The translations under genes were made by a program, and so were the position numbers. Under the pieces are notes generated by a model that worked only from the letters and a program-made list of their open reading frames with translations, did not search any database and was not told the DNA's origin. A stretch of DNA of 61,749 nucleotides, counting the filler, from Globobulimina sp. (taxonomy: Eukaryota), in NCBI GenBank assembly GCA_003354225.1. It is 27 parts of 27 records of this genome, joined end to end, with 100 filler letters (N's around TTAATTAATTAA, not from the genome) between each part and the next. Parts side by side here need not be neighbours in the genome. Positions count along the whole stretch, not along the records: positions 6,879 to 9,070 come from PIVH01008290.1; positions 9,171 to 11,362 come from PIVH01008291.1; 25 more parts are not named here. One strand, given 5' to 3'. This document shows positions 3,739 to 9,685 of the stretch, one piece after another; position 1 is the stretch's first letter, and each line of letters starts with the position of its first letter.

Positions 3739-4486
3739 ATGATATCAGCTTTTCTAAAGAAAACATTCGGCAAAAATTTGGTGAAAGCATTACAAGTCTA
3801 CATACGTGATACATACGGCAAAGACAAAGAGAAGGAAAAGATGAGCAACATTATAGAAATTCAACAATTTCGAGATTGCTGCATTGTGGACGATAAAAAT
3901 GTATCTCCCGTCTCTGCCATAGCAAAGCATGAGAAATATTTAGCATACGTATGTATGTTAGAAAAGCGATTTCCATGGGGCAAATCTGACAGAGGCGTAT
4001 TCTCAAAAGCCTCCAAAGTCCAAGTCTTGTTTATATGGCTCGATTCATACAGAAACACAAAAATCGAACAATCTATGGATATCAGATTGGAAAAATTTGC
4101 TATTATGTTTAATTTGGGTGCCTTAATCTCGTTACATGCAGTCCAGTTATCGGAGCAAGACGAGGATGGCCTCAAAGATGCTTGCAAACTATTCCGTGAA
4201 TCTGGCGGTATATTCCAATATTTATCGCAAAATGCCTCTGAATCCATTCAATTTGTACAAAATATGGATATACAAAAGGATTCATGTCGATTCTTAGCTG
4301 TCTTAATGTTGGCACAAGCACAAGCATGTTTCGCTGAAATGGTATTACAATATTCTACGTCTATACAATTATTAACACCTATCCTGATATGATATACGCA
4401 GGCAATACGCAAGAAAATGAAACCCAAATTGATCTCTGCTTTGGCTATGGGGACATCTGAATTCTTCCAAGAGGTTTGTTACATTT
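3739..4486 (+). CDS. BRO1-domain (ALIX/PalA-like) protein, 3' partial, intron 4342-4401
   Basis: EKFAIMFNLGAL, GLKDACKLFRESGGIF, LMLAQAQACF motifs. Confidence 0.85.
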
Positions 4487-4586: not shown

Positions 4587-5520
4587 GAGATCGATGCCGT
4601 CGCTGAGAGCGAATGCATTTTATGTTGCTGGCTTTGACGCAGAAATAATAGCGAAATGTACATTATATTTACTGTTTATAGGCCGATTATACAACCGGAA
4701 TTTCCAAAAAATATATAAATATTCGCGCACATTACTCTATGTCTTGTGGTGTATTGTATTTCTAATTTGTGCCATGGCAGCAACGATTTCCGCATTATTT
4801 GGAATATATTTCTTTTCTCCGCAGTACGATTTGCAGCTTGGCTCCTTGCAGGATATCAATATAATGTATATCTGTTCCATTGCCTCCTTTGTTTTGATGG
4901 ATGTTATATTGTCAATAATTACCTTATATCTATTCATTAAGCCTTTGTGTAGTTATTATCCATTACTTGTTTTGCCCGACGATGCAATGCGAGCATCATT
5001 ATTTCCGCAAACAATTAAAATGAGGAAACAGATTAAAAAGTATTGCATATTGAGCAGCATTGCCATTATCTCATCGACAATTTTTGCACTCACTGCGATG
5101 GGCAGAGAAATATTCAAATTTGATTGGTTCATCACTGGTAAATTAAATGACGACATTTATTCAATTATTTCAAACACTTTATTGCAAATTGATAGTGTCA
5201 TCTCTATGAATTGTATTTATTTTGGATTTGTGAATAATAGCTATTCATGGCTGACAAAGGCAATTTCAATGATGTTTTGTTGTGAATGTGGTAAATGCAG
5301 TCAATGTGCACAGGATTGTTTATATGTTTATTGTATGTGCCCTCATGGCAAACATAATAAATATTATTTTGAGAATGTGTCCACGGGGAGACAGCACAAA
5401 ACAAAATCAGGAGCAGATGAGCAAAGTGATATGGATACTGATAAAAATTCGATGTTGTTAAAGGTTTCGGCAAATAGCTTGCAACAAACACTGCCGCTTG
5501 TCTTCGAAAATATATATTGA
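4587..5520 (+). CDS. Multi-pass (7TM-like) membrane protein, 5' partial
   Basis: Several hydrophobic helices and a Cys-rich tail; same architecture as 22921-23992. Confidence 0.55.
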
Positions 5521-5789
5521 AAACAAATTATGTGTTTTAGACAGTTTGTTATGTATATGTTTATTAAAGAGTTAGCGAGACTTTTCTGATTATTTGTGTT
5601 GCCATTATGCAGATTTGCAATTTATGCGTTTTCTAGTGTCTTTCTTTCGACTTTATTACCATGCATTATACAGCAAATATCCCTATCATTTCAAGTTATA
5701 CATCCTATTAAATCAATTTCAAAGTTTGTTACATAGAATAATAAATACTTACAGCAATTCTATGGATTTACAGCGCAGCAGGATGCCAA

Positions 5790-6395
5790 ATGACATTGAC
5801 AGGATATACTCCACGGAGCACGTCCGATGATGGATGTAAAACGTTAGCAATAATATGTTCGGCAGGAAATGAACGGTGGGATATAGAAGGCTGTGGATGT
5901 GGTTGCAAACCGGATTGTGTGCGATTGGGCGATACATACTTTGGTAACTTTGAAACATGTCAAGCAAATATAGCACGTGTTTCATGTCCAGGAGAAGGAC
6001 AAGAATTTTGGTCTGATGACAAGTGTGGATGTGGTTGTACTTCGAATTCAGGTTTGATATTCAGATTGATATAAATAAATTGTTTCTGAAGAAAATAAAT
6101 ATTTATAGGCATAGCTGCAGATATTAAGGAAGAGGATATAAACTATTTTGGATTTATAAATTTTGATATGAATAGATTTGCAATTTATGAGTTTATATTA
6201 ATGATCTTTATTTTAATGGCATTTGTATTAAATGTAACATTTGTTAGTTATTTCTGTGTGGTAAGATTTAAAGATTTGGATTATTCATTTGTTAGCGATA
6301 TAAATCGGAATAATAGACATAAAATATTATATACAAAAACAGCAACAGATTGTTCTGACGATGACACATCTTTGGAGAATGTGTTCGATTCATAA
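5790..6395 (+). CDS. Small Cys-rich single-pass membrane protein (probable intron about 6052-6109); start uncertain
   Basis: Two CGCGC motifs; downstream exon has a TM helix. Confidence 0.4.
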
Positions 6396-6878: not shown

Positions 6879-7120
6879 ATGTCAGTAAAAATTAACCGAT
6901 TAAAATTACGATCCCTTTGGAACAGTGAGTACACCATTTTTATTACTCAGATAATTGCTATAGTTACCAAGTACAAGCCCGAAGTATTAAACCTTACAAA
7001 AGCCTTTGGTAAGTTGACCAAATTTGTACCCGAGTTAGCAAAAATTAAAGCACAAGAGCTAGGCAGTGCCCTTAGCAAATTATTACTTAATTTAGATAAT
7101 GAACGCGATATTTTGTTTGA
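6879..7120 (+). CDS. N-terminal fragment of a bacterial DUF6261/HagB-like protein fused to the retroelement (probable chimera)
   Basis: KINRLKLRSLWNSEY...LDNERDILF pattern; RT similarity in another frame begins at about 7121. Confidence 0.5.
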
Positions 7121-8092
7121 TGCTATTGTGGGGCAATTAAAGAGAGAACTGGGAAGACGGTATACTGGTCAATTGATGGTGGTCTACAGGCTCTAGCTAA
7201 AGTGCAAAGAATGGGGAACAGATTACAGAGTGTGCAAACTGCGGACTTCAGCACATTATTTAAAAGTTTTGATCATACAGTTATCAAACAGCAAATTTTC
7301 AAATTATTTGATATGTGTATGCGTAATTCTGGGAAAGCATATGTAGTGGAAGGGAAGCGCAATTTATATTATTCGTCAGCACGGGTGGAGGACTATCTTT
7401 CATTGGAATCAACGGAAATTAAAGAACTAATATCCTATATCATTGATGAAACTTATGTTAAATTTGGACCCTGGATGTTTAGACAAACTTGCGGTGTACC
7501 CATGGGAGGAAATGCATCCCCTACCTTGGCGGACCTTACTCTCAGCATGCTGGAATACAATTTCCTATCCAAAAAAGAGAATCAGCAGGTTGCCAGACGC
7601 ATGGGGAATACAGTACGATATATTGATGATATATTAACTATGAATTTTGAGGATCTAATGGATGTAGCTGCACAGATTTATCCTCCCTCATTGCCTTTGG
7701 AAATTACATCCGCTAATTTTGGTAAATGTGATTTTTTGGACATGACTATTACATGTGGTAATAATGCATATATTGCTGTATATAATAAAACGGATGACTT
7801 CAACTTCAATGTTATTAGATATTTATTCGCTGACAGTAATGTTCATAGTAATTTGGGGCTACAGGTTTATCAATCTCAATTGCTTCGTTTTCTCAGGATT
7901 AGTAATCGCTTGAATAATCTTATTAGCAGAAATAGGGAATTGTTTTTCAGTTTGGTTTCCAATGGTTTTAACAGATTTGATTTGATTAATTGCTCATTTA
8001 AATTCTATGAACGACATAAAATGGAAATACTCAAATTTGGTCTAACAGATAATAAAGAGATAGCACGTTTTATCTGCACTTTTACAAATTAA
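7121..8092 (+). CDS. Reverse transcriptase (C-terminal part) of a Penelope-like element, Naiad/Chlamys-like
   Basis: Frame open from 7121: YCGAIKERTGKTVYWSID, ADFSTLF, QTCGVPMGGNASP, RYIDD, IYPPSL, FLD, YNKTDDFNF, SNVH..VYQSQLLRF; no C-terminal GIY-YIG domain. Confidence 0.88.
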   Translation, partial: CYCGAIKERTGKTVYWSIDGGLQALAKVQRMGNRLQSVQTADFSTLFKSFDHTVIKQQIFKLFDMCMRNSGKAYVVEGKRNLYYSSARVEDYLSLESTEIKELISYIIDETYVKFGPWMFRQTCGVPMGGNASPTLADLTLSMLEYNFLSKKENQQVARRMGNTVRYIDDILTMNFEDLMDVAAQIYPPSLPLEITSANFGKCDFLDMTITCGNNAYIAVYNKTDDFNFNVIRYLFADSNVHSNLGLQVYQSQLLRFLRISNRLNNLISRNRELFFSLVSNGFNRFDLINCSFKFYERHKMEILKFGLTDNKEIARFICTFTN

Positions 8093-8141
8093 AAATTTGC
8101 TCATAGTATTAATTTAGCAGGTAAAATACTGCCCTATTTAA

Positions 8142-8433
8142 AAGCTGTATACCTAGCTGGGGGTATACATTGCCCAGCTTAACCAGTAGTTCAATAGCCG
8201 GTATACTTCGCTGGGAGTATATCCTCAATGGCATTACCAGTTGCTTAGTAACCTTTTTGGTTGAAATGACAATGTGACGTCACTTGGCGTCTTACATATT
8301 AATTTGACGATTCCTTAGCATGACTTCTTAAGCAGTAGGCCTAGCTGGGGGCTTACTTTAATGCTTAACCAGTAGTTCAATTGCCGTACACCTGGCTGGG
8401 AGTGTACATATCATGGCTTACCAGTAGTTCAAT
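8142..8433 (+). repeat. Four ~52-nt structured repeats (8142-8195, 8197-8247, 8329-8381, 8383-8433)
   Basis: Consensus GCn-stem-(N)GCTGG loop-stem-variable-nGC-TT(A)ACCAGTAGTTCAAT, with compensatory stem changes. Confidence 0.9.
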
Positions 8434-8719
8434 ATACTGTAGATTTACTACATGGCGTCAGCCTGATGCCGTTGGTATTGGTTTTACGAATGGACGCACA
8501 AACCCAAAATTGCACGTAATCGACTGTTTTTGATTAAAAATTCGCAAAAATTTGGTTATTACGAGCAAAAAGTGATGATAACAAGAAAACCAGTTTCTTA
8601 AAGACCGTCAAGACGAAAAATTATCTGCGGTAAGAAATTCAGTCTTCTCATAAACGCTTACTTTTTTATTCTGATTTGGTTTCGGCTGTTTTGTTTTTTG
8701 TATATTTTTCAGAATTGCC

Positions 8720-8872
8720 ATGGGTCGTGGATATGGTCGAGGAGGTCGAGGAGGTGGCGGTCATGAGAGAGGAGGTCAAAGAGGACGGGGTGGTGAGCAT
8801 GTTGGACGCAGGCAGCAGCTGAACACAAATAAAAGATCCCGCCGGGAGTATACTCCAGTTAGTTTATTTTAA
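8720..8872 (+). CDS. RGG-rich micro-ORF/first coding exon (MGRGYGRGGRGGGGHERGGQRGRGG...)
   Basis: GCCATGG start context just after putative intron 8630-8712 (GTAAGA...TTTTTCAG); GTTAGT donor at 8858. Confidence 0.6.
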   Translation: MGRGYGRGGRGGGGHERGGQRGRGGEHVGRRQQLNTNKRSRREYTPVSLF

Positions 8873-8949
8873 GAGCGTTTAAATAACTATGTTTTATTAT
8901 ATTTATAATAACGTGTTATGTGGTGTAATTTTCGGTAGCTATTTTTAAT

Positions 8950-9043
8950 GGTTTATTGGTTTCTTCTGATGAAGGTCCCGCCAATAAACCAGCAGGTCTA
9001 CTAAAAATTGAGTCAAGAAACAGGGACCGAAACTCAATTTTTA
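8950..9043 (+). ncRNA. Hammerhead ribozyme, non-circularly permuted
   Basis: CTGATGA 8966-8972, GAAA 9029-9032, GTC 9012-9014; stem I 8959-8965/9015-9021, stem II 8974-8979/9023-9028, stem III 9002-9013/9032-9043. Confidence 0.88.
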
Positions 9044-9685
9044 TTATTATTATTTTATGCTACCTGCAGTNNNNNNNNNNNNNNNNNNNNNNNNNNNNNN
9101 NNNNNNNNNNNNNNTTAATTAATTAANNNNNNNNNNNNNNNNNNNNNNNNNNNNNNNNNNNNNNNNNNNNTGACCATGGGTGGAGAGACAGTCCTTTTTA
9201 CATACATCTAACTGGGGGAATGCATTTTTCTCAATAATGAAAAGTGTCCTATTATTCCTAACAGGGCGACAGTCTGAATGCGGATTTTTAAGATCGATTT
9301 GCTAATCTACTGGACTGTGTAGTAACTATATAACTCTACTTTTCCTAGTGGCAGGCATTTCCTGTATGTATACATCCAAATGGGTTAAATTCCACTGTAC
9401 CAACATAAATGAATGAAATGGCGGATACAAAATTCAATATAGTAGCACTGCGGCGTCCCGCTAGCTACTTTTTGGACACTAGCTGGTGGAGAGACATCCG
9501 TTCATTCCGATCAGGCATATCCAACACCTTAGACGCCCTTAATGGACCAGCAAGTTCACGGATTACTCTTCCTTAGCATACACCTGCTTTATTGCGTCAC
9601 ATATGTTGCCAAATTAATTTTAAATAGTGATTAGCCAATGCCCAACGACTCAGTTGATACCAAGGCACACTGAGATCACCTATCA

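Follow-up and report, generated by a model that had tools for sequence, protein, structure and literature searches.

The window analysed here is a 61,749-base stretch of DNA from Globobulimina sp. (assembly GCA_003354225.1), in which 27 contigs of 2189-2193 bases, sorted by size, are joined with filler (N/TTAATTAATTAA/N) between them. The element features described below are confined to one contig of 2192 bases (6879-9070, referred to as the window contig), and BLAST found no second copy of this contig in the remaining window. It carries what is probably the 3' part of a Penelope-like element (PLE): the end of a reverse TRANSCRIPTASE (RT) frame, an array of short hairpins, a candidate intron and exon, and a hammerhead ribozyme with permuted strands. 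From 5' to 3', the features are as follows.

6879-7120, + strand: 5' flank outside the element, with an open frame unrelated to the RT.
7121-8092, + strand: C-terminal part of the RT and its stop, 323 codons, with motifs A-C and thumb.
8142-8438, + strand: array of four paralogous units of ~52-59 nt in two pairs (8142-8254 and 8330-8438).
8630-8712, + strand: candidate leader intron of 83 nt (GTAAGA, T-rich tract, CAG), recognised from sequence only.
8713-8857, + strand: candidate exon with ATG at 8720 and 46 codons, followed by a GTTAGT donor at 8858 in phase 0.
8949-8991, + strand: hairpin X, formed by stem IV (8949-8960 with 8980-8991), its loop holding block C.
Block C, + strand: stem I strand 8959-8965, CUGAUGA 8966-8972, an extra A at 8973, and stem II strand 8974-8979.
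9002-9043, + strand: hairpin Y, formed by stem III (9002-9013 with 9032-9043), its loop holding blocks S and G.
Block S, + strand: GUC ending at C9014, and stem I strand 9015-9021, followed by a 1-nt linker at 9022.
Block G, + strand: stem II strand 9023-9028 and GAA 9029-9031.

A sequence-only reading had placed an RT without GIY-YIG domain, an RNA array, an intron, an exon rich in RGG and a hammerhead in this order on the + strand, and all of them could be located. We put at roughly 70% the probability that 7121-9043 is the 3' part of a Naiad-type PLE ending in a type-CSG hammerhead, a non-circular permutation named by its block order (Eckert, Friedrich, Weinberg & Weinberg, NAR 2023, PMC10085705). 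Statements on this paper, and on the other papers cited below, refer to the parts of them available to us.

The RT frame is open from 7121 to a stop at 8090-8092. Motifs A, B and C lie at residues 42, 125 and 167, and the 157 residues from YIDD to the end contain the thumb and no endonuclease (EN). As nothing of the element lies 5' of 7121, this copy is devoid of the N-terminal RT motifs and of the endonuclease, and Pfam returns only a weak RVT_1 match (E 6.4e-4). The protein database holds 40 relatives of similar length with an identity of 31-47%, together with 53 longer ones, 24 of which have a precomputed GIY-YIG (PF01541) match. Full-length relatives of ~900-1060 aa have the C-terminus of the window open reading frame (ORF) and a GIY-YIG domain near the N-terminus. 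We fetched 18 loci with RT (L001-L018), eight from metagenome contigs and ten from genome contigs. In L009, L010, and L011, Pfam places GIY-YIG within residues ~112-234 and RVT_1 within residues ~627-861; in the 967-aa protein of L010, they span 112-194 and 634-815, respectively. The Naiad diagnostics, which fall in regions missing from the window copy, were scored by regular expressions in the 42 relatives of at least 800 aa. DKA, in place of DKG, is present in 37, two cysteines between GIY and YIG (GIY-CxxC-YIG) in 38, the CxC...GH motif in 30, and the upstream CX2-5CxxC linker in 27 of them; L009-L011 have DKA, the GIY-YIG cysteines and the linker. Given the common C-terminus and the Naiad diagnostics of the relatives, the window RT is assigned to the Naiad clade of PLEs, the kind with an N-terminal GIY-YIG. 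This agrees with the Naiad/Chlamys-type RT of the earlier reading, relatives sharing the thumb C-terminus and having GIY-YIG near the N-terminus, and the Naiad diagnostics of the relatives speak against a grouping with retron or group II RTs. A scan of viral contigs with the RT alignment returned no relative.

At 8949-9043, the hammerhead strands follow each other in the order of block C (CUGAnGA), block S (the cleavage site), and block G (GAAA). Stems I, II, and III have 7, 6, and 12 base pairs (bp), respectively. They total 25 bp, whereas shuffling the whole window 200 times gave no more than 15 bp on either strand. Masking the ribozyme site leaves no match on the + strand of the window. Cleavage is predicted after C9014, with a 3' product of 29 nt.

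The same strand order lies 3' of the RT on the + strand of L010 and L011, where it was found by scan, and of L009, where it was found by eye. Searching the five metagenome-assembled genomes behind the loci with the core pattern gave seven matches, comprising two known loci, four chance matches, and one new 731-base contig with the same motif (L025). We compared these four examples with that of the window contig. An alignment by MAFFT left block S out of register, and pairs were counted from the core anchors instead. The core nucleotides C3-A9 (CUGANGA), G12-A14, and C17 (H17, not G) are present in all five examples, and the GUC triplet and the pairs G10.1-C11.1, A15.1-U16.1, and C15.2-G16.2 are invariant. 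In contrast, the helices vary in sequence while staying paired. Specifically, 147 of 150 helix cells are paired in register, as against 51-62 when the partner strand is slid by 1-3 nt, and compensatory changes on both sides occur at 27 of the 30 helix positions. Stems I and II are each paired at 20 of 20 cells and stem III at 48 of 50, the slid values being 3-11 of 20 and 16-25 of 50; the compensatory positions number 4 of 4 in stem I, 3 of 4 in stem II, and 8 of 10 in stem III. Aside from these, there is a stem IV of 12-14 bp, in which the bases immediately 5' of the stem I strand pair with those immediately 3' of the stem II strand; in all five examples it starts no more than 2 nt from stems I and II. 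Nested folding by minimum free energy (MFE) yields two adjacent hairpins in each of the five, and a distance of 45-57 nt separates the core halves in four. The gap from A9 to stem II is 0-1 nt in four examples (1 nt in the window contig and L011, the others being L010 and L025) and 30 nt in L009. The spacer between stems IV and III measures 6-12 nt in the window contig, L009, and L010, 2 nt in L011, and 0 nt in L025. The predicted 3' cleavage products are 26-31 nt long. Hence, the permuted hammerhead of the sequence-only reading proves to be a motif that is conserved and covaries across examples.

A strict uniform descriptor of the motif matches the window once, two of the 18 RT-bearing loci, and L025. 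The negative control consisted of 117 viral loci (1.09 Mb), chosen beforehand for containing the core pattern, and gave no match. The ribozyme-bearing elements fall into at least two well-separated lineages in an RT tree whose 13 rows are drawn from the loci of this analysis, with L010 and L011 grouped together (98/97) and the window contig and L009 elsewhere. A more distant group of the tree (L002, L003, L006, L013, and L015) is without the motif. The CUGAnGA sites in L002, L006, L012, L013, and L015 were inspected by eye as further hammerhead candidates, and fit neither the CSG nor the canonical order.

We then inspected the ends of the elements. L010 contains a head-to-tail pair of units, its positions 1-780 matching 5276-6050 at 93%. 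In L009, positions 1-98 equal 5008-5105, meaning that the last 98 nt of the element, which include the 3' part of the ribozyme, stand directly before the body; the sequence after 5105 is unrelated. Identical ends also occur in L012, L002, and L006. The end repeats of L009 and L010 indicate that the region behind the RT precedes the next unit, as a pseudo-long terminal repeat (pseudo-LTR) does, in keeping with the role that had been proposed for the 3' region. For the window family itself, contigs from three runs of one sample were compared with the window, these being unitigs that overlap by ~30 nt. They depart from it immediately after 9041 and 9043, at the very end of stem III, so the window family ends with the ribozyme. 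Divergent Naiads have the hammerhead core and four covarying helices 3' of the RT, and their units stand head to tail. A "tail" of 30-40 bp has been published for Naiads; the loose idea of equating it with the 3' cleavage product fits the window (29 nt, end at 9043) and fails in L009, whose element runs on for 90 nt behind the cleavage site.

Right behind the RT stop lies the hairpin array. Its units start at 8142, 8196, 8330, and 8381 (families D1 and D2), and in each, a 9-bp hairpin whose loop contains GCUGGG precedes a stretch containing ACCAG, both loop and stretch being invariant. Of the 13 predicted pairs, 5 have changed on both sides among the copies without losing the pairing, and a U-G pair shared by all four copies suggests RNA of the + strand. 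As a whole, the array region is not more stable than its shuffles (z -0.40). The array would serve as the recognition site of the RT protein in the 3' untranslated region (UTR). Arrays of short hairpins with unrelated sequences also stand right after the RT stop in L010 (4225-4425) and L011 (~3823-3900). We considered whether the units are tRNA-like; ARAGORN finds no tRNA gene in the contig, and by this test they are not. Between the two pairs of units lies a perfect TGACGTCA palindrome (8275-8282), which we take to be the consensus of the cAMP-response element and which might be part of an internal pseudo-LTR promoter; six letters at 8281 are missing in one sample contig.

The candidate exon encodes, from 8720 to 8857, an RGG-rich stretch followed by basic residues. 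L001, with an RT 40% identical to that of the window, has a similar ORF behind its RT frame, so the RGG exon behind the RT noted earlier has a counterpart. The G/R-rich ORF of L001 has 52 codons (2172-2327) and a phase-0 donor, GTGGGT, and it is directly preceded by a pyrimidine tract and CAG (GT...TTTTTGCAG), like that of the window. Among L001-L018 and the window, RG-rich ORFs were found only in the window contig and L001. At a distance of 30-130 nt on the 5' side of the ribozyme, L009 (4777-4887) and L010 (4958-5011) have candidate mini-exons that begin with ATG and whose GT donor is in phase 0, and the window RGG exon has the same position relative to the ribozyme as the mini-exons of L009-L011, which are not of the RGG kind. 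In these three loci, the EN-RT ORF is preceded by a separate ORF1 of ~200 aa.

L009, 524-1120: ORF1.
L010, 214-867 and 5487-6050: ORF1, in both units.
L011, 1-453: ORF1.

The three ORF1 products are 27-30% identical to each other and have no Pfam match and no meaningful NCBIfam match. A stretch of the form HSRR/K-N-hydrophobic is conserved and may recall the ORF1 proteins of LINE-1. The ORF1 frames open right behind an AG in L009 (523/524) and L010 (5504/5505), and an in-frame ATG is missing for ~33 and ~90 codons, respectively. This arrangement suggests that the ribozyme sits in an intron between the start exon of ORF1 and the next unit.

The alternative that the RGG ORF is a free-standing small 3' ORF, or noncoding, and that the GT and AG matches arose by chance, is a serious one, though we hold it to be the less probable view. 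It would account for the unspliced frame, which closes after 50 codons (stop 8870-8872), for the acceptor of the 8858 donor not being in the contig, for the absence of an RG-rich N-terminus from all 42 long relatives, and for the non-RGG mini-exons of L009, L010, and L011. It accounts less well for L001, which at 40% RT identity keeps an RGG ORF of similar size with the same CAG and phase-0 GT signals, and for the ORF1s of L009 and L010, which are without a start codon of their own and begin at an AG. Elsewhere in the window, the product of an ORF on another contig (11682-13702) is RGG-rich at its N-terminus (MRRGGRGRY...), and the ORF behind it presumably resembles the apurinic/apyrimidinic (AP)-type endonuclease of a long interspersed nuclear element (LINE). 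An RGG start on the first ORF may be common among the retrotransposons of this organism.

Taken as the 3' part of a Naiad-type PLE, 7121-9043 would work as follows. The copy would be 5'-truncated, or its contig mis-joined, at ~7121-7127. Behind the RT stop, the 3' region would consist of the hairpin array, the leader intron, the ATG mini-exon with its donor, and the terminal type-CSG hammerhead, and in tandem or pseudo-LTR arrangements, it would also be the leader for the unit that follows. Stems I and II would each have one strand in the loop of hairpin X, on either side of CUGAnGA, and their other strands in the loop of hairpin Y, where the order would be GUC site, stem I strand, linker of 1-6 nt, stem II strand, and GAA. 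By pairing with each other, the loops would form the two stems and thereby complete a standard hammerhead core, in which stem IV and the short linker would hold stems I and II in line in place of the usual loop-loop contact. The RNA would then cut itself after C9014. The mini-exon would supply the ORF1 of the next unit with its start codon across an intron that holds the ribozyme and the unit junction. Spliced RNA would thus be mRNA freed of the ribozyme, and unspliced read-through RNA would be cut to unit length.

A wider reading is tentative, and we think it doubtful that all of its parts hold together. In it, the type-CSG hammerhead would be the regular, functional terminal ribozyme of a large share of Naiads, and the "HHR_half_core" cases reported from Naiads would be the same motif. 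The ribozyme would lie in an intron that reaches from the pseudo-LTR mini-exon across the unit junction into the body of the unit behind it, and splicing and cleavage would compete for each read-through transcript. The spliced RNA would be the mRNA of ORF1 and EN-RT, and the unspliced one would become unit-length RNA with 5'-OH and 2',3'-cyclic phosphate ends, which could be ligated to circles and copied by rolling-circle reverse transcription. Such copying would explain the partial tandems and the terminal "tails".

Several observations weigh against the assignment to a functional terminal hammerhead or against parts of the scheme. Rfam finds no hammerhead in the whole window at the gathering threshold or in the contig at E up to 10, where its matches are three chance-level hits to small nucleolar RNA (snoRNA) and small RNA (sRNA) families; this is expected, since covariance models cannot represent a pseudoknotted strand order. 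In 15 related loci, Rfam likewise gives no hammerhead at E up to 1. Of the 18 RT-bearing loci, 15 do not have the motif, and in at least nine of these (L001, L002-L006, L012, L013, and L015) the sequence extends 500 nt or more 3' of the RT. L001, with its RGG ORF, has no detectable ribozyme in the 295 nt behind the donor, and the locus has no CUGAnGA at all. As the L009 element continues for 90 nt behind the cleavage site, the 3' end of the template is not simply set by the ribozyme. The same locus carries a 30-nt insertion (4947-4976) between A9 and stem II, and block C is not expected to tolerate such an insertion (PMC10085705). In L025, the linker measures 6 nt and stem III contains a U-U mismatch. 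Because the anchors of stem IV were picked by optimisation, its paired count is inflated. The mini-exon of L011 has only 5 codons, and the splice sites are consensus matches only. The L009 insertion folds into two small hairpins, the 3' arm of the second being able to pair with the stem I strand in the structure preferred by MFE. It could reflect decay, or a switch that masks stem I.

The strongest alternative for the ribozyme is that it is real and acts only between molecules or tandem copies, loop X pairing with loop Y of another RNA, for example in a symmetric dimer. Cutting would then be coupled to RNA dimerisation, as in the small dimeric hammerheads of other PLEs. We regard this as unlikely. 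It gains from the spacers of 0-2 nt in L025 and L011, which may be hard to reconcile with folding in cis, and which would promote a coaxial stack of the hairpins, with a large distance between the two loops. Covariation, moreover, is blind to whether the strands pair in cis or in trans. On the other hand, the spacers in the window contig, L009, and L010 are longer, and the lengths of stems I and II track each other (7, 6+1; 4, 5; 6, 5+1), as a cis linker of 1-3 nt needs. In favour of this alternative, dimeric PLE hammerheads are in print (Lunse et al. 2017, as cited in PMC10085705); against it, both published type-CSG RNAs cut at the expected site during transcription, as single molecules of 77-78 nt for which a dimer is not excluded, with kobs of 0.004 and 0.026 per min (PMC10085705).

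A decayed hammerhead, or a structural element such as a protein-binding double hairpin, is less probable still. The slowness of the published type-CSG RNAs and the large core-strand insertion in L009 would fit such a relic. However, the catalytic-core nucleotides are kept in five of five examples while all four helices change, and a purely structural element has no need of the unpaired CUGAnGA, GAA, and C17. That 8093-9070 was joined to the RT by mis-assembly and has nothing to do with the element is very improbable. It could draw on the fragmented assembly, from which the window strings together contigs of ~2.19 kb, on the resemblance of this contig's own 5' end to a foreign join, and on the contigs used for comparison being ~30-nt-overlap unitigs of the same sample. 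Against it, one sample record (7779-8170) spans from the RT stop into the first hairpin, others bridge on to 9043 (8141-8620, 8591-8838, 8809-8952, and 8923-9043), and the succession of RT stop, hairpin array, ATG mini-exon, and type-CSG ribozyme recurs on L009, L010, and L011, which are independent contigs.

The 5' end of the window contig is of a different nature. Frame 1 of the flank is open for 105 codons without RT similarity, and it has no Pfam or NCBIfam match. As a weak lead, its look-alikes in the ESM atlas are Bacteroidota clusters of hypothetical or DUF6261-type proteins (score 0.95, recognition below threshold). One sample contig (run X1) matches the window from 7127 on and has different letters upstream that keep the RT frame open, which means that a longer copy exists in the sample; a contig of a second run ends at 7121. 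Positions 6879-7100 are uncovered in X1, the X3 run gives no cover at all, and among the 9 matches listed of 16 sample pieces none bridges 7121-7127. Two origins fit the first ~240 bases: they flank an insertion that was truncated at its 5' end, or they were joined on at ~7121-7127 as a chimera, perhaps of bacterial and eukaryotic DNA. The rest of the element is unaffected by this doubtful end. The sample contigs also hold variant copies, with substitutions and small indels at 8085-8140, 8281, 8451-8544, and 8990, the last being a loss of three letters at the edge of stem IV, and an opposite-strand joint between 8331 and 8644. Both are expected of a multi-copy element with inverted partial copies.

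Other RNA families came up in the related loci. Matches resembling Twister-P5 (28.7 bits against a gathering threshold of 37.6, E 0.018) lie on the + strand of L003 (3076-3135), L004 (3014-3073), and L005, where one stands at each end (22-81 and 3771-3830), 3749 nt apart, as in a pseudo-LTR. They belong to a more distant PLE family with an N-terminal EN and lie ~255 nt 3' of the EN-RT stop. The copies are identical and show no covariation; if they are true twisters, some of these elements carry a twister where others have a hammerhead. L002, a PLE unit assembled as a circle with ends identical over 123 nt, has in its noncoding part (347-487) a partial match to the Metazoan signal recognition particle (SRP) RNA, with 42 bits against a gathering threshold of 70 and E 1.4e-7.

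Compared with known systems, the window hammerhead resembles the canonical type I (CGS) hammerheads of other PLEs and of animal retrozymes (Cervera & de la Pena 2014 and Lunse et al. 2017, both in PMC8557442 and PMC10085705; bioRxiv 10.64898/2026.07.22.740005) in its place in the terminal repeat region, where it too would presumably cut tandem transcripts to unit length. It differs from them in strand order and topology, and goes undetected by the Rfam models. Its stem III is long, with 10-12 bp or more across the examples, whereas that of the dimeric PLE hammerheads is presumably minimal. Hammerhead searches by descriptor or covariance model in transposon annotation need to include the three non-circular orders. 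The predicted intron around the ribozyme resembles known ones: Penelope of D. virilis has a leader intron, and in Chlamys-3_cRei an intron spans the boundary of pseudo-LTR and body (PMC8557442). As in their pseudo-LTRs, the 3' region here is promoter and leader of the next unit, with an intron in the leader. Different from these 5' UTR introns, the predicted intron would lie behind a start codon and would hold the ribozyme. A ribozyme in the intron between pseudo-LTR and body offers a testable model of how one family of transcripts could yield both mRNA and template RNA.

The Naiads described by Craig, Yushenova, Rodriguez & Arkhipova (MBE 2021, PMC8557442) share with the present elements an RT at the C-terminus of the ORF, 5'-truncation, partial tandems and pseudo-LTRs, and the absence of a canonical hammerhead, and the relatives of the window RT have the N-terminal GIY-YIG with CCHH cysteines, the CX2-5CxxC linker, CxC, and DKA. 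Unlike those Naiads as described, the present elements have a complete hammerhead in CSG order and a separate ORF1 whose start lies in an upstream mini-exon. According to the same paper, Naiads lack canonical hammerheads, yet "HHR_core" and eight "HHR_half_core" cases, with halves 35-50 nt or more apart, were left unexplained and fit no descriptor. Naiads are described there as dominating many invertebrate genomes, and their lack of hammerheads was read as a sign that hammerheads are dispensable to PLEs or merely parasitic on them. If the assignment made here is true, a PLE group thought to be free of hammerheads does carry them, and the argument that PLEs can do without them weakens.

The sequence-only reading is largely borne out in its outline, but it had called the combination an undescribed system, which overstates the case. 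The topology cannot count as previously undescribed, type-CSG order having been published in 2023 (PMC10085705), and for Penelope and Chlamys-3_cRei, pseudo-LTRs whose boundary to the body is crossed by an intron are described in PMC8557442. What appears to be new is the link of type-CSG hammerheads with Naiad elements; our literature search found no paper that connects type-CSG or other non-circular hammerheads with Naiads or other PLEs, and the supplements of PMC8557442 and PMC10085705 may bear on this. The published type-CSG examples are two similar metagenomic DNA sequences with "modest" covariation and no genetic context stated in the text, and the evidence for their biological relevance was rated weaker than that for type-SGC. 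In type-SGC, stems I and II are connected on one side by a short linker and on the other by an additional stem, and cleavage needed all four helices (PMC10085705); both devices are also present here. Like the type-CSG hammerheads of Eckert et al., the window ribozyme has the block order C-S-G, all conserved core nucleotides, and stems I-III that cross as pseudoknots, and its predicted 3' product of 29 nt equals the published 3' fragments in length. Unlike them, as set against their description only, it is one of five divergent examples with four covarying helices and a defined place in a retrotransposon. If this holds, the type-CSG class gains a natural context and a richer alignment from these five members.

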